From a virus, in UHGV virus genome UHGV-0171999: DNA of 64,000 nucleotides; one strand, given 5' to 3'. Position numbers and translations under genes: made by a program. Below the pieces are notes generated by a model, which saw nothing but the letters and a program-made list of their open reading frames with translations, was not told the origin of the DNA and did not search any database. Shown here piece after piece: positions 55,428-63,515 of this stretch; within the stretch, counting starts at the first letter, position 1, and each line of letters opens with the position of its first letter.

Positions 55428-55440
55428 TAGAATAAATCTA

Positions 55441-55461
55441 GGGACCTCCGGGTCCCTTTTT
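55441..55461 (+). terminator. intrinsic terminator after gene 43
   Basis: gggacc-tccg-ggtccc followed by ttttt. Confidence 0.65.
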
Positions 55462-55544: not shown

Positions 55545-55574
55545 GTTTACATCCCTGTTCTTCCATGGTACTAT
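55545..55574 (+). promoter_or_regulatory. early promoter
   Basis: GTTTACA, 17 bp, TGgTACTAT followed by acaactatcaactac; near-identical to the cassette at 13851. Confidence 0.6.
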
Positions 55575-55602: not shown

Positions 55603-55854
55603 ATGAAAAATATTCAAACTAATTTTATTCAAAATTTAAAAGTTGTTAATGCAGAAAAAGCTAATAAACTCTTTAAAGTTAAAGAATTCGAAAATGAAGG
55701 TAATACTTATGGTATTATAGAACAAAATGGAATGGTGACTGGATTAGAAATTTATATTGGCAAAGGAAAATTTCAGTCACAGCCAATTTCTGTTATGGGT
55801 GTAAGAAAAGGAATTAAAATTGAAGATGCTTTAAAATTATTTGCTAAGTTTTAA
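55603..55854 (+). CDS. hypothetical protein
   Basis: 83 aa from Met 55603; ORF 55420-55854 upstream part is promoter read-through. Confidence 0.5.
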   Translation: MKNIQTNFIQNLKVVNAEKANKLFKVKEFENEGNTYGIIEQNGMVTGLEIYIGKGKFQSQPISVMGVRKGIKIEDALKLFAKF

Positions 55855-55866
55855 GAGGAAATTGTT

Positions 55867-56247
55867 ATGAAAATCGCTATTTTGGTTATTGCATTAGGTC
55901 TTACTGGTTGTGTAGCTCAAGGACCGGTAGTGAATCAGTCTGATGTAGGAAAAATTGTAAACTGTTCAAGCAAATTTTATAATCCTAATGTCAAGTGTTA
56001 TAAAGAAGCTCCAAAGCAGACAGTAGAACAAATGCAGGCGAATTTTGACGAAGCTATTCGTCCAGATGAATCTGCTCAAGCATATCGTAATTCAGATGTG
56101 ATTACACGTGAAGAAAAAATTGAAAACTACTGCGCCGAACTTTGGGTTAATTGGGCTAATAATTACCAATGGCGTACTGGTAAAAATGCTCCAATGGAGT
56201 ATGTAGTGAATTCTTATAATTCATGCGTAAAAAATTTGACTAAGTGA
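55867..56247 (+). CDS. predicted lipoprotein
   Basis: Signal peptide with lipobox MKIAILVIALGLTGC. Confidence 0.5.
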   Translation: MKIAILVIALGLTGCVAQGPVVNQSDVGKIVNCSSKFYNPNVKCYKEAPKQTVEQMQANFDEAIRPDESAQAYRNSDVITREEKIENYCAELWVNWANNYQWRTGKNAPMEYVVNSYNSCVKNLTK

Positions 56248-56254
56248 GGAAAAA

Positions 56255-56506
56255 ATGGAAACTTTAGTAGCAGGTTCAATTTTTATGGTTTTAGTTTCAG
56301 GCGTGTTGGCTATTATTATATACATGCTTCCGTGGTTCATCGCCTTGATGCGTGGGTCAAAATCGACAGTAGGAATCTTTTTCACATCTTTACTGTTTAA
56401 CTGGTCAATTATTGGTTGGTTTATTACATTTATTTGGTCAATTGCGGGTGAAACTAAAAAATCTGTGCAGCAAAATCAAGTAATTATCATCAGAGAGAAG
56501 GAATGA
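56255..56506 (+). CDS. imm: superinfection immunity membrane protein Imm
   Basis: 83-aa ORF with two hydrophobic helices, located between 43 and 42 as in T4. Confidence 0.6.
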   Translation: METLVAGSIFMVLVSGVLAIIIYMLPWFIALMRGSKSTVGIFFTSLLFNWSIIGWFITFIWSIAGETKKSVQQNQVIIIREKE

Positions 56507-56659
56507 AAAGCAAATTTTTAGCAGTATTGCTTTTAATCTTGATGATTATAATAAGTATATACTATAGCGTAACGGTTCCTTGTATGATTCCGACACTTAT
56601 TATAGGTTGGGGTTTATTACTGTTACAAGTTAAATATGAATGTATCAATTGAGGTTTAA

Positions 56660-57400
56660 ATGATTAATGACTCTTTGACAGTTGAAGAAATCCGTCTTCA
56701 TTTGGGAATTGCGTTAAAGGAAAAAGATTTCGTAATTGATAAAACTGGCGTTAAAACTATTGAAATTATTGGTGCATCATTTGTAGCAGATGAACCTTTT
56801 ATTTTTGGCGCTCTTAATGATGAATACATTCAACGTGAACTTGAATGGTACAAGTCTCAAAGTCTGTTTGTTAAAGATATTCCAGGTGAAACACCAAAGA
56901 TTTGGCAACAGGTAGCATCTTCTAAAGGCGAAATTAACTCGAATTATGGTTGGGCCATCTGGTCAGAAGATAACTATGCCCAGTATGATATGTGTTTAGC
57001 TGAACTTGGTCAAAATCCTGATTCTCGACGTGGTATCATGATTTATACTCGTCCATCCATGCAGTTTGACTACAACAAAGATGGTATGTCAGATTTCATG
57101 TGTACTAATACAGTACAGTACCTGATTCGTGATAAGAAAGTCAATGCAGTAGTAAGCATGCGCTCAAATGACGTGGTCTTCGGATTCCGTAATGATTATG
57201 CATGGCAAAAATACGTATTAGATAAATTAGTATCTGATTTGAATGCAGGCGATTCAACTCGTCAGTATAAAGCAGGTTCTATTATATGGAATGTTGGAAG
57301 TCTTCATGTATATTCTCGTCATTTTTACTTGGTTGATCATTGGTGGAATACTGGCGAAACTCATATTGTGAAAAAAGACTATAAAGGTGAGTGGAAATGA
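56660..57400 (+). CDS. 42: dCMP hydroxymethylase gp42
   Basis: 246-aa ORF MINDSLTVEEIRLHLGIALKEKDF...; matches recalled T4 gp42. Confidence 0.92.
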   Translation: MINDSLTVEEIRLHLGIALKEKDFVIDKTGVKTIEIIGASFVADEPFIFGALNDEYIQRELEWYKSQSLFVKDIPGETPKIWQQVASSKGEINSNYGWAIWSEDNYAQYDMCLAELGQNPDSRRGIMIYTRPSMQFDYNKDGMSDFMCTNTVQYLIRDKKVNAVVSMRSNDVVFGFRNDYAWQKYVLDKLVSDLNAGDSTRQYKAGSIIWNVGSLHVYSRHFYLVDHWWNTGETHIVKKDYKGEWK

Positions 57401-58239
57401 TTCAATTCGTAATTCCAAGTTATCAGCGTGTCGGGGCAGTTTCTGCCCTTGATATGTTTCCGACTGATTATGAACCCCATATTGTAGTGCGTGAACATGA
57501 AGAAAAAGCTTATTATGACGCTTACGGGTCTAGAGCTAAAATTGTAGTTATTCCCGATGATGTAAATGGAATTGCTGGAACTCGTAAAGCAATTACTGAT
57601 ATGTATGCAGGCCAACGAATTTGGATGATTGATGATGATACTACTATTCGTATGAGTTCAATGCGAAAGAAAGATGATCGTCGCTGCGTAGATAAAATTA
57701 ATCAATTAACTCGTGAACAGTTCTATGAATTGATTCAATACGTGGAAGATGCAATGGATTGCGGGTATTATCATGGTCATGCTCGTCTACCTATTTTTAA
57801 AATTACTTCATCTTGGGGTAATTATCGTGAAAATTCATATGGATTCACGAATACCTGGTATGACCTCGGAAAACTTACAACAGAACAAATTGGGTATGGA
57901 AAAATTGATTTATGCGAAGATATGTATGCATTTCTCAATTTAATTAATCAAGGTTATCCGCATTTGGCCTTGTTCAAATATCTGGTTGTATCTGGAAAAG
58001 CACAGGCTCCTGGCGGATGTAGTTCAATTCGTAGTAATTCAAAACATAATAGAGCGCTCGAGCAAATCAATAGAGAATTTCCAGAGCAAGCTCGTTGGAA
58101 AACATCGAATATTGAAAATAGAAAATCGTTGGGTGAAGAAGACGAGCCATTAAAAGTTCTTCGCATGTGTGTTTCACGTAAAGAAAAATCAGAAGCATTT
58201 CATAAGTTTAATGCTATTCATCCAATAGCAGTTGATTAA
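57397..58239 (+). CDS. GT2-family (GT-A fold) glycosyltransferase at the beta-gt locus; not T4 beta-gt-like
   Basis: N-terminal FVIPSYQR (GT2-type IPxYN motif) and DxD motif WMIDDDT; ATGA overlap with gene 42; lies between 42 and uvsX. Confidence 0.6.
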   Translation: MIQFVIPSYQRVGAVSALDMFPTDYEPHIVVREHEEKAYYDAYGSRAKIVVIPDDVNGIAGTRKAITDMYAGQRIWMIDDDTTIRMSSMRKKDDRRCVDKINQLTREQFYELIQYVEDAMDCGYYHGHARLPIFKITSSWGNYRENSYGFTNTWYDLGKLTTEQIGYGKIDLCEDMYAFLNLINQGYPHLALFKYLVVSGKAQAPGGCSSIRSNSKHNRALEQINREFPEQARWKTSNIENRKSLGEEDEPLKVLRMCVSRKEKSEAFHKFNAIHPIAVD

Positions 58240-58316
58240 TGCCTAAATTTATTGTGTTATAATTACTCTATCTTTAACCAGTGAGGAAAATATAATGATG
58301 CCTATGGAAAAAATGA

Positions 58317-59498
58317 ATGTCTATTGCAGATTTAAAATCCCGTTTGATTAAAGCTTCCACTTCTAAAATGACTGCTGAACTGACTACATCTAAATTCTTT
58401 AATGAAAAGGATGTAATCCGTACAAAAATTCCAATGCTTAATATCGCTATTTCTGGTGCGATTGATGGCGGCATGCAGTCTGGTTTAACTATTTTCGCAG
58501 GGCCTTCTAAACACTTTAAATCAAATATGTCTTTGACTATGGTTGCGGCATATTTGAACAAATATCCTGACGCGGTTTGTCTATTCTATGATAGCGAATT
58601 TGGTATTACTCCAGCTTATTTGCGATCCATGGGAGTTGACCCGGAACGAGTAATTCATACGCCGATTCAGTCAGTTGAACAGCTGAAAATTGATATGGTG
58701 AATCAGCTTGAAGCTATTGAGCGCGGTGAAAAGGTTATTGTATTCATCGACTCAATCGGTAATATGGCTTCTAAGAAAGAAACGGAAGATGCCTTGAATG
58801 AAAAATCTGTGGCAGATATGACTCGTGCTAAATCACTGAAGTCATTATTCCGTATTGTTACTCCTTATTTTAGTATTAAAAACATTCCATGTGTTGCGGT
58901 TAACCATACAATTGAAACAATTGAAATGTTTAGTAAAACCGTGATGACAGGTGGTACAGGCGTAATGTATTCGGCTGATACTGTATTCATTATCGGTAAG
59001 CGCCAGATTAAAGATGGATCTGATCTTCAGGGGTATCAATTTGTTCTAAATGTAGAAAAATCTCGTACCGTCAAAGAAAAAAGTAAATTCTTTATTGATG
59101 TTAAATTTGACGGTGGTATCGATCCTTATTCTGGATTGTTAGATATGGCTCTTGAATTAGGATTTGTGGTAAAACCTAAAAATGGCTGGTATGCTCGTGA
59201 ATTTCTTGACGAAGAAACCGGCGAGATGATTCGCGAAGAAAAATCTTGGCGTGCAAAAGATACCAATTGCACTACATTCTGGGGTCCTTTATTTAAGCAT
59301 CAACCATTCCGAGATGCTATTAAACGTGCTTATCAGTTAGGTGCTATTGATAGTAATGAAATTGTTGAAGCTGAAGTTGATGAATTGATTAACTCAAAGG
59401 TTGAAAAATTTAAATCTCCAGAAAGTAAAAGTAAATCAGCAGCTGATTTAGAAACTGACCTAGATCAGTTAAGTGATATGGAAGAATTTAATGAATAA
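58317..59498 (+). CDS. uvsX: RecA-like recombinase UvsX
   Basis: 393-aa ORF; Walker A GPSKHFKS; strong match to recalled T4 UvsX. Confidence 0.95.
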   Translation: MSIADLKSRLIKASTSKMTAELTTSKFFNEKDVIRTKIPMLNIAISGAIDGGMQSGLTIFAGPSKHFKSNMSLTMVAAYLNKYPDAVCLFYDSEFGITPAYLRSMGVDPERVIHTPIQSVEQLKIDMVNQLEAIERGEKVIVFIDSIGNMASKKETEDALNEKSVADMTRAKSLKSLFRIVTPYFSIKNIPCVAVNHTIETIEMFSKTVMTGGTGVMYSADTVFIIGKRQIKDGSDLQGYQFVLNVEKSRTVKEKSKFFIDVKFDGGIDPYSGLLDMALELGFVVKPKNGWYAREFLDEETGEMIREEKSWRAKDTNCTTFWGPLFKHQPFRDAIKRAYQLGAIDSNEIVEAEVDELINSKVEKFKSPESKSKSAADLETDLDQLSDMEEFNE

Positions 59499-59841
59499 AG
59501 ATGATTTAGATTTAGATTTAGATCTAGAAATTATCGACGAATCCCCCTCTTCGGAGGGGGAAGAAGAAAGAAAAGAACGTCTTTTTAATGAATCTCTTAA
59601 GATAATTAAATCTGCCATGGAAAATGTTATCCAGGAGATTGTCATTAAACTAGAAGATGGTTCTACACACATTGTGTATGTGACAAAATTAGATTGGGTT
59701 GATGGAAAAGTCGTAATGGACTTTGCTGTTCTTGACCAAGAAAGAAAAGCTGAGTTAGCTCCTCATGTAGAAAAATGTATTACAATGCAACTACAAGATG
59801 CATTTAATAAAAGGTCAAAGAAAAAATTTAAATTCTTTTAA
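59491..59841 (+). CDS. 40: gp40-position protein (head vertex assembly chaperone in T4)
   Basis: ORF 59473-59841 with Met at 59491 (MNKDDLDLDLDLE); synteny uvsX-40-41. Confidence 0.55.
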   Translation: MNKDDLDLDLDLEIIDESPSSEGEEERKERLFNESLKIIKSAMENVIQEIVIKLEDGSTHIVYVTKLDWVDGKVVMDFAVLDQERKAELAPHVEKCITMQLQDAFNKRSKKKFKFF

Positions 59842-59850
59842 GGAGTAAGT

Positions 59851-61278
59851 GTGGTAGAAATTATTCTTTCTCATCTCATATTTGATCAAGCTTATTTTTC
59901 AAAAGTTTGGCCATATATGGATTCAGAATATTTTGAAAGTGGTCCAGCTAAAAATACATTCAAATTAATTAAATCTCATGTTAATGAGTACCATAGCGTT
60001 CCATCTATTAATGCGTTAAATGTTGCATTAGAAAATAGTTCATTTACTGAAACAGAATATTCTGGTGTAAAAACACTTATTTCGAAACTAACCGATTCTC
60101 CAGAAGACCACAGCTGGTTAGTAAAAGAAACAGAAAAATATGTTCAGCAAAGGGCGATGTTTAATGCTACGTCTAAAATAATTGAAATTCAAACTAATGC
60201 TGAGCTTCCTCCAGAAAAACGAAATAAGAAAATGCCAGATGTAGGTGCTATTCCTGACATCATGCGCCAAGCATTATCAATTTCATTTGATAGTTACGTT
60301 GGTCATGATTGGATGGATGACTACGAAGCACGTTGGCTATCTTATATGAATAAAGCTCGTAAGGTTCCATTTAAACTCAAAATTCTAAATAAAATTACTA
60401 AAGGCGGAGCTGAAACTGGAACACTGAACGTTTTAATGGCCGGTGTTAACGTTGGTAAGTCATTAGGTCTGTGTTCATTGGCAGCAGATTATTTACAGCT
60501 CGGTCATAATGTTCTTTACATTTCAATGGAAATGGCAGAAGAAGTCTGTGCTAAGCGTATTGACGCTAACATGCTCGATGTTTCTCTTGATGACATTGAT
60601 GATGGGCATATTTCTTACGCTGAATATAAAGGAAAAATGGAAAAATGGCGTGAGAAATCTACTCTCGGTCGTTTAATTGTTAAACAATATCCTACTGGTG
60701 GAGCAGACGCTAATACATTTAGATCGCTTTTAAACGAATTAAAACTCAAGAAGAATTTTGTTCCAACAATCATTATTGTTGACTATCTAGGTATTTGTAA
60801 ATCTTGTCGCATCAGAGTTTACTCAGAAAATAGTTACACAACTGTTAAAGCTATCGCAGAGGAATTGCGTGCTCTGGCTGTTGAAACCGAAACCGTTCTT
60901 TGGACTGCAGCACAGGTTGGTAAGCAAGCTTGGGATTCTTCTGATGTTAACATGAGCGATATTGCAGAATCTGCCGGTCTTCCAGCAACAGCCGATTTTA
61001 TGCTTGCGGTCATTGAAACCGAGGAGTTAGCAGCTGCTGAACAACAACTCATTAAGCAAATCAAATCACGATATGGTGATAAGAATAAATGGAATAAGTT
61101 TTTGATGGGTGTTCAAAAAGGAAATCAGAAATGGGTAGAAATTGAACAAGATTCTACTCCAACCGAAGTGAACGAAGTAGCAGGTTCGCAGCAGATTCAG
61201 GCTGAGCAGAATCGCTATCAAAGAAACGAATCCGCTCGAGCTCAGTTAGATGCTTTGGCAAATGAATTAAAATTTTAG
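59851..61278 (+). CDS. 41: replicative DNA helicase gp41 (DnaB-like), apparent GTG start
   Basis: 475-aa ORF; Walker A GVNVGKS; strong match to recalled T4 gp41. Confidence 0.95.
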   Translation: MVEIILSHLIFDQAYFSKVWPYMDSEYFESGPAKNTFKLIKSHVNEYHSVPSINALNVALENSSFTETEYSGVKTLISKLTDSPEDHSWLVKETEKYVQQRAMFNATSKIIEIQTNAELPPEKRNKKMPDVGAIPDIMRQALSISFDSYVGHDWMDDYEARWLSYMNKARKVPFKLKILNKITKGGAETGTLNVLMAGVNVGKSLGLCSLAADYLQLGHNVLYISMEMAEEVCAKRIDANMLDVSLDDIDDGHISYAEYKGKMEKWREKSTLGRLIVKQYPTGGADANTFRSLLNELKLKKNFVPTIIIVDYLGICKSCRIRVYSENSYTTVKAIAEELRALAVETETVLWTAAQVGKQAWDSSDVNMSDIAESAGLPATADFMLAVIETEELAAAEQQLIKQIKSRYGDKNKWNKFLMGVQKGNQKWVEIEQDSTPTEVNEVAGSQQIQAEQNRYQRNESARAQLDALANELKF

Positions 61279-61307
61279 TTTACAAGCCGACAAGACTATG
61301 GTAAGTA
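61278..61307 (+). promoter_or_regulatory. early promoter upstream of dmd
   Basis: GTTTACA, 17 bp, TGgTAAGTA. Confidence 0.5.
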
Positions 61308-61334
61308 GTCTTGTTGGTTAAATGAGGAGATGTT

Positions 61335-61517
61335 ATGGAATTAGTAAAGGTAGTTTTTATGGGGTGGTTTAAGAATGAAAGCATGTTTACTAAAGAAATC
61401 ACAATGATGAAAGATGACGTTCAATGGGCTACTACTCAATATGCTGAAGTTAATAAAGCGCTAGTTAAAGCTTTCATTGATGACAAGAAAGTATGCGAAG
61501 TTGATTGCCGAGGATAA
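61335..61517 (+). CDS. dmd: Dmd, antitoxin against host RnlA/LsoA RNases (gene 61.5)
   Basis: 60-aa ORF MELVKVVFMGWFKNESMFTKEITMMKDDVQW...; matches recalled T4 Dmd. Confidence 0.8.
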   Translation: MELVKVVFMGWFKNESMFTKEITMMKDDVQWATTQYAEVNKALVKAFIDDKKVCEVDCRG

Positions 61518-61518
61518 T

Positions 61519-61761
61519 ATGCATATTGTTTTATTTAAACCTACTCCGTATAACGTCAGGAAAAATACGCAATTCAAAGCACTTGTTGCAGATACGTGGG
61601 AATTGGTGTTAGATATTCCAGCAGAAGAAAGTCCTCCATTTGGTCGAGTGGAATTTATTAAGTTTGCTGTTCGCCCTACGAAGCGACAGATTCGTCAATG
61701 CAAAAGATACTTTCGTAAAATCGTCAAGTTAGAGAAACGGTTATTGATGCTAGTAAAATAG
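61519..61761 (+). CDS. hypothetical basic protein
   Basis: ORF 61477-61761 with probable start at Met 61519. Confidence 0.45.
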   Translation: MHIVLFKPTPYNVRKNTQFKALVADTWELVLDIPAEESPPFGRVEFIKFAVRPTKRQIRQCKRYFRKIVKLEKRLLMLVK

Positions 61762-61763
61762 TA

Positions 61764-61793
61764 GTTTACAAGCTGATAGAGTTGTGTTATAGT
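61764..61793 (+). promoter_or_regulatory. early promoter
   Basis: GTTTACA, 17 bp, TGtTATAGT. Confidence 0.55.
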
Positions 61794-61824
61794 AATTCTA
61801 TCAGCTAATCGCGGAGAAAAGAAA

Positions 61825-62079
61825 ATGATGCTAGTTAATAGAGAATATCAGTTTAAATCAGAAGAAGATTTGGAAAAATTCGCAAGTGGTTGTGAACTGA
61901 ATAGACGCACAGCTAAAGTCATAGGATTAAAACCCTTTACAGTTCTAGATTGTGAAGTTTCTAAATTCCGCAGAGGGTGTTCTATTAGCGGTCATGCTCT
62001 GGTTGATGGGAATACATTTTTCTTTGTTTTTAGCGTCAGAGAACTTTTATTGATTAACGAACTTGAGGAAATAAAATAG
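61825..62079 (+). CDS. hypothetical protein
   Basis: 84-aa ORF. Confidence 0.45.
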   Translation: MMLVNREYQFKSEEDLEKFASGCELNRRTAKVIGLKPFTVLDCEVSKFRRGCSISGHALVDGNTFFFVFSVRELLLINELEEIK

Positions 62080-62107
62080 TTTACTTTTGTTTTAAACATG
62101 TTATTAT
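62079..62107 (+). promoter_or_regulatory. early promoter
   Basis: GTTTACT, about 16-17 bp, TGtTATTAT. Confidence 0.5.
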
Positions 62108-62143
62108 AGACCTATCAAAACAAACGAGTAAATGGAGAACAAA

Positions 62144-62326
62144 ATGTCTAAAGTATCAGGTTATCAATTATTAACACAAGAACAACGTTCAGAGATGGAT
62201 TCTTTACAAGAACGGTGTCAGCATAGAAATAACGCACTTGATTCATTTTTATTAGTTGAATATGAAAACTTGTGCTCTAGACTTGAAAAAGAATATGTTC
62301 ATCAACATGAAGGAGGAGAAGAATGA
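62144..62326 (+). CDS. hypothetical small protein
   Basis: ORF 62132-62326 with Met at 62144. Confidence 0.4.
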   Translation: MSKVSGYQLLTQEQRSEMDSLQERCQHRNNALDSFLLVEYENLCSRLEKEYVHQHEGGEE

Positions 62327-62429
62327 AACTGAAATCACCAATTATTGCAATTTGTCTGTTTGCTTCTACTGGTGTTTACTTTTGTTGAAAATTGAGATAT
62401 TATAAACATAAACTACTGAGGAGATTATC

Positions 62430-62723
62430 ATGAAAAAATTTATCTTTGCTGCAATTTTTGCTTTATCTTCTTGCGCTGCCCAGCCTGCCATGGCAGGTTA
62501 TGACAAAGATTTATGTGAATGGTCTATGACTGCAGATCAGACTGAGGTTGAAACTCAAATTGAAGCAGATATTATGAATATCGTTGAGCGTGATCGCCCT
62601 GAAATGAAAGCTGAAGTGCAAAAACAGCTTAAATCTGGCGGGGTAATGCAGTATAATTACGTTCTGTATTGCGATAAAAACTTCAATAATAAAAATATCA
62701 TCGCTGAAGTGGTAGGTGAATAA
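62430..62723 (+). CDS. sp: Spackle-like periplasmic protein (superinfection exclusion, gene 61.3 position)
   Basis: 97-aa ORF with 22-aa signal peptide MKKFIFAAIFALSSCAAQPAMA; size and location as recalled for T4 Spackle. Confidence 0.6.
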   Translation: MKKFIFAAIFALSSCAAQPAMAGYDKDLCEWSMTADQTEVETQIEADIMNIVERDRPEMKAEVQKQLKSGGVMQYNYVLYCDKNFNNKNIIAEVVGE

Positions 62724-63349
62724 TGCTTTATCAAATGCACAAGTGCAAAGATACATACAAATATAAAGGTGCCCAGTGTTATATCATTAATCGTGAAAAC
62801 GCGGGTCCAGGTCATTCGCATCAATCACGGTTTGTATTCGTTAAAAACAATGAAATTATAGCAGTTGCTAATTACATGCTTGTGACTAATGATGTTAATC
62901 CGGTGCCTTTTACATATTATAATCTAATGGATTTGGCGTACGATTATAATTGGTTTAATCATGACACTTTGGCTCATATTGAAGGCGTAGGATTTGACAT
63001 CTCTTATTCTAGTTACTCGTTGTGTCCTATGAGCCGAGCTCATAGAGAGCCTGAATATTTTTCATTTCGTCGGCGTGTAGACTTTAAACGCAGTACAGAG
63101 TATGTCGGTGGAATCTTTGTTAAAGATAATCGAATTACTCGCATTATTTATCCTTTGGGTTGTGGTCAAAAAGATATTGATGTTGATTTAGACTTTACTG
63201 AAAACGTCATTAATCATATTGCTTCTGTGTATTTTGATATTGATCACAAAATTGTAATATGTGGATATGAATTACCATCAGAAAAACAGTCTAAAATAGA
63301 TGTTTCTATTGATGACCAAATTTTTAATGCTTTTATGAATAGAGGTTAA
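62723..63349 (+). CDS. hypothetical protein (61.1 position)
   Basis: 208-aa ORF, ATGC-coupled. Confidence 0.5.
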   Translation: MLYQMHKCKDTYKYKGAQCYIINRENAGPGHSHQSRFVFVKNNEIIAVANYMLVTNDVNPVPFTYYNLMDLAYDYNWFNHDTLAHIEGVGFDISYSSYSLCPMSRAHREPEYFSFRRRVDFKRSTEYVGGIFVKDNRITRIIYPLGCGQKDIDVDLDFTENVINHIASVYFDIDHKIVICGYELPSEKQSKIDVSIDDQIFNAFMNRG

Positions 63350-63350
63350 T

Positions 63351-63515
63351 ATGAAAACATATAAAGAATTTATTAAAGAAGATATGGTTGCTGGAGATTC
63401 AGGTGGTAATCCTGAAAATATCTCTACTGGAACAACATCAGGTGCTGTAGTAAATAAAGGTCCTGAACAGATTCCTAAAAAGAAAAAAGAGGAATCTAAA
63501 GAAAAAGAAGAGTAA
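63351..63515 (+). CDS. small lysine/glutamate-rich protein with IP-type capsid targeting sequence
   Basis: 54-aa ORF (below the 60-aa track cutoff) MKTYKEFIKEDMVAG...; SD aggaggt upstream; abuts gene 61. Confidence 0.45.
   Translation: MKTYKEFIKEDMVAGDSGGNPENISTGTTSGAVVNKGPEQIPKKKKEESKEKEE

Follow-up and report, generated by a model that had tools for sequence, protein, structure and literature searches.

In phage T4 the early genes between the replication genes 41 and 61 include several whose products act against host toxins, and these genes, together with the superinfection-exclusion genes imm and sp, recur in the sequence considered here, positions 55867 to 63349 of a 64,000-nucleotide stretch (the window) of the virus genome UHGV-0171999. 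Dmd is an antitoxin-like inhibitor of the RnlA/LsoA endoribonuclease toxins (summarised in PMC9391042); in T4 an early promoter is located upstream of dmd, and the dmd neighbourhood was published in 2022 as an anti-TA (toxin-antitoxin) island, a source of candidates for further anti-toxin genes (PMC9391042). One gene there encodes gp61.4, or TifA, a protein that inhibits the type III toxin ToxN (Srikant et al. 2022, eLife, PMC9391042). In the account of Guegler et al. (PMC10853763) TifA binds both ToxN and RNA, by which ToxN is trapped on cellular RNA, and the basic RNA-binding residues K55, R56 and R59 of TifA from RB69 are given there as needed for ToxN inhibition. gp61.2 is AdfA, anti-DarT factor A, in which a histidine aligned to RB69 residue 164 allows binding and neutralisation of DarT1 (PMC9391042, PMC11257639). 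Spackle, the sp product, is described as acting in the periplasm, where it inhibits the tail lysozyme gp5 that superinfecting phage bring (PMC7677548). Two other described systems bear on the locus: the PeSL cassettes, in which variable ORFans lie between conserved early-promoter motifs (Arbiol et al. 2010, PMC2839356; Comeau et al. 2014, PMC4122927), and the GoF/MotB.1/Frd.2 family of LSm-like proteins (Kim et al. 2025, PMC12152347).

The interval of the window is very probably a standard set of T-even early accessory genes grouped around the 42-uvsX-40-41 block, consisting of independent single-gene modules mostly of known function, with extra cassettes brought in by recombination between promoter repeats. 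By Megablast an 8.2-kb stretch matched 861 phage records, 467 of them over at least 80% of its length at ~95-97% identity, and these 467 are nearly all Tequatrovirus, that is T4-like coliphages. The window is oriented in reverse to the T4 reference and its genes read in the order 43, orf83, imm.1, imm, orf49, 42, the gene of a beta-glucosyl-HMC-alpha-glucosyltransferase, uvsX, 40, 41, dmd, 61.4, orf84, orf60, sp, 61.2, 61.1 and 61. Every open reading frame (ORF) listed in an earlier note on this DNA is present where it had been placed and is a real, conserved gene; three small ORFs were overlooked there, at 55603-55854, 56503-56652 and 62323-62388.

The earlier note had recognised Imm, a neighbouring lipoprotein, Dmd and Spackle, the first two between genes 43 and 42 and the last two between 41 and 61, and both the identifications, by Pfam matches and 96-100% identity to T4, and the positions are borne out. 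Its description of four further small ORFs as uncharacterised holds only for 61825-62079 (orf84) and 62144-62326 (orf60), both absent from T4; those at 61519-61761 and 62723-63349 are TifA and AdfA, whose functions are experimentally established (PMC9391042, PMC10853763, PMC11257639). The suggestion that such neighbours would be anti-defence candidates was sound in that two of the four are anti-defence genes, although both were characterised in 2022-2023 and the island proposal is itself in print. The established functions of the near-identical T4 genes are defence-related rather than unrelated, and with that most of the novelty is gone. The region is an ordinary and well-studied T-even accessory gene set whose exclusion and anti-toxin functions are known: the 41-61 interval is recognised as an anti-toxin island, and the exclusion genes for Imm and Spackle are in the textbooks. 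The features between genes 41 and 61 are:

61268-61317, + strand: early promoter of the dmd-tifA operon, -35 box GTTTACA, with inverted repeat I5 around the -10 box and direct repeat D1
61335-61517, + strand: dmd (Pfam Dmd, 1.6e-46), 60 of 60 residues identical to T4 Dmd
61519-61761, + strand: tifA (gp61.4; Pfam DUF7279, 5.2e-20), 95% identical to T4 over residues 1-76
61754-61806, + strand: early promoter of orf84, TTTACA-17-TATAGT with TG (motif at 61765-61793), with direct repeat D1 and inverted repeat I4
61825-62079, + strand: orf84, 84 residues (phrog_2980 "goF", 3.2e-20), accessory
62079-62107, + strand: early promoter of orf60, TTTACT-16-TATTAT, left copy of an 18-nucleotide direct repeat (D2)
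62144-62326, + strand: orf60, an acidic ORFan of 60 residues, isoelectric point 4.9 (phrog_37915, 1.2e-45), accessory
62323-62388, + strand: hydrophobic ORF of 21 residues, MKLKSPIIAICLFASTGVYFC, with a strong Shine-Dalgarno sequence and an ATGA overlap with the orf60 stop
62374-62403, + strand: early promoter of sp, TTTACT-17-TATTAT, right copy of the 18-nucleotide direct repeat (D2)
62430-62723, + strand: sp (Spackle; Pfam T4_Spackle, 2.8e-45, residues 1-96), 97% identical to T4
62723-63349, + strand: adfA (gp61.2; Pfam PF23813 AdfA, 1.5e-135, residues 1-208 of 208)
63351-63515, + strand: gp61.1, 54 residues of low complexity, 96% identical to T4 gp61.1

As in the T4 island (PMC9391042), genes 41 and 61 enclose the same set of genes in unchanged order, the proteins being 95-100% identical; tifA is directly 3' of dmd in one early operon, and the two phages have in common the early promoters, the RNA-binding residues of TifA and the histidine allele of AdfA. 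Unlike T4, the window has the orf84 and orf60 cassettes between tifA and sp, a different TifA tail, and a 23-nucleotide promoter repeat flanking the dmd-tifA unit. Alignment of the window TifA with those of T4 and RB69 (A3) shows that K55, R56 and R59 are retained and that residue 41 is phenylalanine, the T4-type interface residue, which gives weaker ToxN inhibition than serine or histidine. The last seven residues (RLLMLVK) are unlike T4 because the left junction of the orf84 cassette falls in the 3' end of tifA (A1), and the tail is outside the conserved core since the RB69 protein stops at residue 70. The gp61.4 of the window is a TifA that would be expected to inhibit ToxN as do its T4 and RB69 orthologues. 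AdfA, 95% identical to T4 gp61.2 and 70% to the RB69 protein, has histidine 165 aligned with arginine 164 of RB69 and with the T4 histidine (A2) and is therefore of the His allele; it may act like these orthologues, the activity of the near-identical allele being uncertain. Spackle retains its N-terminal signal sequence, MKKFIFAAIFALSSCAAQPAMA.

If the window copies work like their orthologues, Imm would block the entry of superinfecting phage DNA at the inner membrane and Spackle would inhibit the gp5 lysozyme in the periplasm, while Dmd would bind the RnlA/LsoA RNase toxins, TifA would trap ToxN on RNA and AdfA would bind the DarT1 ADP-ribosyltransferase. orf84 and orf60 are strain-variable cassettes, and recombination between early-promoter repeats, a modular shuffling of the PeSL type, is the best explanation of how they were moved.

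Three arrangements of the slot between tifA and sp are seen in alignment A1: in T4 the sp promoter comes directly after tifA, P8 has orf84 only, and the window and REP4 have orf84 together with orf60. The right-hand junctions of the cassettes lie at GTTTACTTTTGTT, a repeated GTTTAC(T/A) motif that is the -35 part of the early promoters. The orf60 unit is flanked by the 18-nucleotide direct repeat (62079 and 62374) and dmd-tifA by the 23-nucleotide direct repeat (61268-61290 and 61754-61776, 486 bp apart). orf84 and orf60 each have their own early promoter and GGAG ribosome-binding site, and the sites at 61765-61793, 62080-62107 and 62375-62403 match the PeSL consensus TTTACW-N16/17-TAYWAT. A 13-nucleotide inverted repeat (I4) surrounds the -10 box of the orf84 promoter; no stem-loop was found at the orf60 and sp promoters. 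The sp promoter is common to 216 other records without orf60. The locus resembles the PeSL cassettes in its variable ORFans between conserved early-promoter motifs, in a presence or absence among close relatives that maps to those motifs, and in a terminator-plus-promoter after gene 43; it differs in that the inverted repeats of the tifA-sp slot enclose the -10 box and do not form a terminator upstream, and that the left junction of orf84 is within tifA. RB69 (locus L005, 4012-4690) carries its imm.1-imm pair not beside gene 43 but between tifA (61.4) and sp, so the slot is a recurrent insertion site. As a separate matter, the 23-nucleotide repeat could make it easier for dmd-tifA to amplify in tandem, an event that has been selected experimentally in T4 on toxIN hosts.

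orf84 occurs in 84 of the ~860 phage records, and SP18, a Gaprivervirus, as well as uncultured T4-like contigs have diverged relatives at 55-81% identity. The family is always in the 41-61 interval in four T-even lineages, SP18 and loci L010, L011 and L012 included. On the latter three (L010 5001-5483, L011 4015-4654, L012 1908-2547) the homologue is directly upstream of a TifA homologue, the position of dmd in T4, and dmd is undetectable; on these loci a 253-residue protein without Pfam match comes after gene 41. A word-indexed search of 5.8 billion proteins gave 5-6 close relatives of orf84, too few for a deep alignment, and the IMG/VR scan gave one locus. With its alignment as a profile against 1.84 billion representatives, one true relative was found and none outside T-even-like phages; five other profile matches were discounted as multi-stretch, apparently repetitive proteins.

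Over its first 41 residues orf84 shares 37% identity with residues 7-47 of T4 GoF by BLASTP (pairwise E 2e-8). The protein also matches several other N-terminal PHROG profiles, and an exhaustive hidden Markov model search did not recover the GoF relation at library-wide significance. The fold of the GoF family is a bent antiparallel beta-sheet of five strands, an LSm/SH3-like barrel. The AlphaFold2 (AF2) model of orf84, of mean pLDDT (predicted local distance difference test) 75.5, combines a short strand and three long ones with two helices; in BFVD it matches an independent model of a family member (template modelling (TM) score 0.82) and, weakly, T4 MotB.1 (E 0.01, TM 0.56), and its weak PDB matches to eIF5A/EF-P barrels (E 0.2) are at most compatible with an SH3/LSm-like barrel. 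Like the GoF/MotB.1/Frd.2 family, orf84 is an early gene restricted to T-even-like phages, with the N-terminal sequence, the PHROG "goF" match and the model match to MotB.1 in favour of kinship; unlike them it has a single domain, and its place is the 41-61 island, not the vicinity of gene 39, motB or frd. The architecture of the family is an N-terminal barrel, a linker and a C-terminal domain, and orf84 ends after the first of these, so that a free-standing relative of the GoF N-terminal domain describes it best. The label "goF mRNA metabolism modulator" that several records give to orf84 reflects N-terminal similarity only and not orthology to the 141-residue GoF. Cys23, Cys43, Cys52 and His57, which GoF lacks, are invariant in all six sequences of the orf84 family, down to 56% identity, and may form a metal site. 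The best guess, a weakly supported one, places orf84 in the GoF family as a small early protein associated with RNA; it may shield phage mRNA from host endoribonucleases, the theme of its neighbours.

orf60 is found in only 21 of the ~860 phage records, every one at least 95% identical, and has no relatives in IMG/VR or bacterial genome scans, nor among 1.8-5.8 billion proteins. Since the scan of bacterial genomes gave no match, a bacterial antitoxin origin is rejected. A GGAG ribosome-binding site lies ~7 nucleotides before the ATG. Three in-frame length variants, produced by 3-nucleotide changes in a C-terminal GGAGGAG tract, are weak evidence that orf60 is coding; repeat slippage could also account for them. 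The 21-residue ORF that follows terminates in the -35 box of the sp promoter, and what lies upstream of 62373 is confined to records that carry orf60. This ORF is taken as part of the orf60 cassette and could be either what is left of a truncated gene or a membrane peptide of small size.

Several points weigh against the picture of a standard island with shuffled promoter cassettes. The F41-bearing TifA of T4 is, at single copy, only a weak inhibitor of ToxN, and the actual target may differ. T4 deleted for adfA shows no detectable phenotype against the tested DarTG1 (PMC11257639), for which reason the natural target of the T4-type AdfA may be another DarT. A generic promoter scan gave 33 sites versus 33.8 expected in shuffled sequence, and the promoter calls therefore rest on position, conservation and the T4 literature. 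I4 and I5 surround the -10 box at the orf84 and dmd promoters and are not upstream terminators, a loose fit to PeSL. As to the orf84 fold, the AF2 prediction was confident in only one of five models, and the model had no significant match in the PDB (none with E <0.19).

The second group of accessory genes lies between genes 43 and 42:

55440-55457, + strand: terminator-like stem-loop and T-run just past the gene 43 stop, 7-bp stem with 5 GC pairs
55546-55574, + strand: early-promoter-like site TTTACA-17-TACTAT with TG, upstream of orf83, imm.1 and imm, conserved in T4, REP4 and P8 (A9)
55603-55854, + strand: orf83, 83 residues, basic, isoelectric point 9.6 (phrog_18567, 1.9e-50), inserted between the promoter leader and imm.1 (A9)
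55867-56247, + strand: imm.1, predicted lipoprotein (Pfam DUF5481, 2.3e-71), 98% identical to T4 imm.1
56255-56506, + strand: imm, superinfection immunity protein (Pfam Imm_superinfect, 7.8e-16), 96% identical to T4 Imm
56503-56652, + strand: orf49, hydrophobic micro-protein of 49 residues (phrog_3610, 1.9e-25), its start overlapping the imm stop (ATGA)

The stem-loop at 55440-55457 is the stem-loop half of a PeSL-type element and is common to T4, REP4 and P8 (A9), and the site at 55546-55574 fits the T4/PST PeSL promoter consensus TTTACW-N17-TAYWAT (PMC4122927). The locus is thus like 43-imm.1-imm-42 of T4 in its imm.1 and imm, 96-98% identical, in the terminator and early promoter after gene 43, and in a small hydrophobic ORF between imm and 42; it is unlike T4 in the extra 83-residue ORF, which T2 has too, between the promoter and imm.1. 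orf83 is carried by 38 phage records, T2, RB51 and RB68 among them, with Dhakavirus relatives at 55%, and has no tblastn match in T4, REP4 or P8; the equivalent slot of REP4 holds an unrelated 115-residue ORF with a signal peptide. orf49 has counterparts in T4 (86%), in the Gaprivervirus MN01 (MN01_00164, 47%) and in RB69 (RB69ORF054c, 58%), and its alignment with the latter two (A8) shows the invariant pattern IY..P.MIPT..GW..LQ.KYEC.N. This ORF has the look of a genuine membrane micro-protein that was missed, and it is without annotation in the T4 RefSeq record NC_000866.

The N-terminus of imm.1, MKIAILVIALGLTGC, contains the lipobox L12-T13-G14-C15, which fits [LVI][ASTVI][GAS]C and predicts a lipoprotein; the mature form would be a 112-residue periplasmic domain with conserved cysteines at full-length positions 89 and 120. 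The lipobox is LAGC in T4 and LTGC in RB69 (A6), and together with one cysteine pair it is kept between these phages. imm.1 occurs in 657 phage records, of Tequatrovirus and, at ~33% identity, of Mosigvirus. The word-indexed search gave three close relatives, too few for a deep alignment; the single-sequence AF2 model is of low confidence (pLDDT 66.8) and has no PDB match with E <0.7. A likeness to known exclusion lipoproteins such as T5 Llp is at most conjecture. Imm itself, with two hydrophobic transmembrane helices at roughly residues 5-31 and 39-64 by inspection of the sequence, is found in 1011 records.

One alternative makes imm.1 a functional partner of Imm, a periplasm-facing lipoprotein of the superinfection-exclusion barrier. 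In Tequatrovirus imm.1 is immediately upstream of imm under one promoter, the pair is intact in RB69 despite its relocation, and the lipobox and conserved cysteines imply a periplasmic location like that of Spackle. The authors of PMC5885020 group imm.1 loosely with exclusion genes, and the literature searched assigns it no function. Set against this, imm is far more widespread than imm.1 (1011 versus 657 records), in Dhakavirus and Gaprivervirus imm comes directly after gene 43 and imm.1 is missing, and structure prediction gave no lead. In the older T4 literature Lu and Henning are reported to have found that cloned imm alone confers exclusion. Because the pair is kept in RB69 and imm.1 is missing from Dhakavirus and Gaprivervirus, a partnership is possible and not obligatory, and as an account of imm.1 it is tentative and on balance unlikely.

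The cassettes in the tifA-sp slot admit two other accounts. orf84 or orf60, and possibly imm.1, orf49 and orf83, might be undescribed anti-defence factors, orf84 as a TifA-like RNA-binding antagonist of a toxin and orf60 as an acidic decoy or inhibitor, small and acidic as many protein inhibitors are. Such a role would accord with the proof that two original neighbours are anti-TA factors and with the published island, with the confinement of orf84 homologues to that island in four lineages, directly upstream of a TifA homologue on L010-L012, with the N-terminal domain of GoF type, LSm-like and so of a fold that often goes with RNA, and with the patchy distribution and early promoters of both genes, typical of counter-defence accessory genes. 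The association is, however, positional only; there is neither homology to known anti-defence proteins nor a structural match, and neither orf84 nor orf60 nor imm.1 turned up in the supplements to one published accessory-gene screen. The checks of homology and structure made on orf84, orf60 and the lipoprotein speak neither for nor against an anti-defence role, and this account is doubtful. Alternatively, orf84 might modulate host takeover or mRNA metabolism in the way presumed for GoF, with orf60 a neutral or nearly neutral ORFan carried along by a recombinogenic promoter cassette. Gene 41 mRNA is stabilised by the GoF(D25Y) mutant, and the orf84 family is always just downstream of gene 41; orf60 is limited to its 21 near-identical records, and the PeSL papers report just such traffic of ORFans. 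Against a useless orf60 are the frame kept through three length variants, the good ribosome-binding site and promoter, and the capsid size limit on T4-like genomes, by which useless DNA tends to go (PMC9391042). This second account is plausible though it falls short of being probable. That at least one of orf84 and orf60 is a new counter-defence factor, directed to a host endoribonuclease toxin or to another defence system, is unlikely but worth naming. It would extend the published anti-TA island and, by way of orf84, would give the GoF/MotB.1/Frd.2 family its first biological role.

With the standard island as the preferred reading, what the window adds to published knowledge is the naming of orf84 and orf60 as the next candidates of the island and of imm.1, orf49 and orf83 as further ones, the tie of orf84 to the GoF LSm-like family, and the view of the tifA-sp promoter repeat as a recurrent insertion slot. 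When all unknown ORFs were scanned against NCBIfam and PADLOC, the matches were at chance level only (YidC, 0.003; RT_UG34, 0.0056; 2TM-TIR, 0.087); gp61.1 had no family match in the scans, and Rfam gave no RNA family between 55300 and 64000.

Elsewhere in the region, 57391-58239 encodes a beta-glucosyl-HMC-alpha-glucosyltransferase of the T2/T6 type that replaces the beta-gt of T4, and the homing endonuclease gene segA, which in T4 is between beta-gt and uvsX, is missing from the window phage. Public records of the region carry some spurious automated names: imm.1 of the T4 RefSeq record (L003, 9137-9514) is called "iduronate sulfatase", and in the P8 record (L001, 6112-6372 and 7690-7854) TifA is named "DNA polymerase" and gp61.1 "major capsid domain-containing protein".

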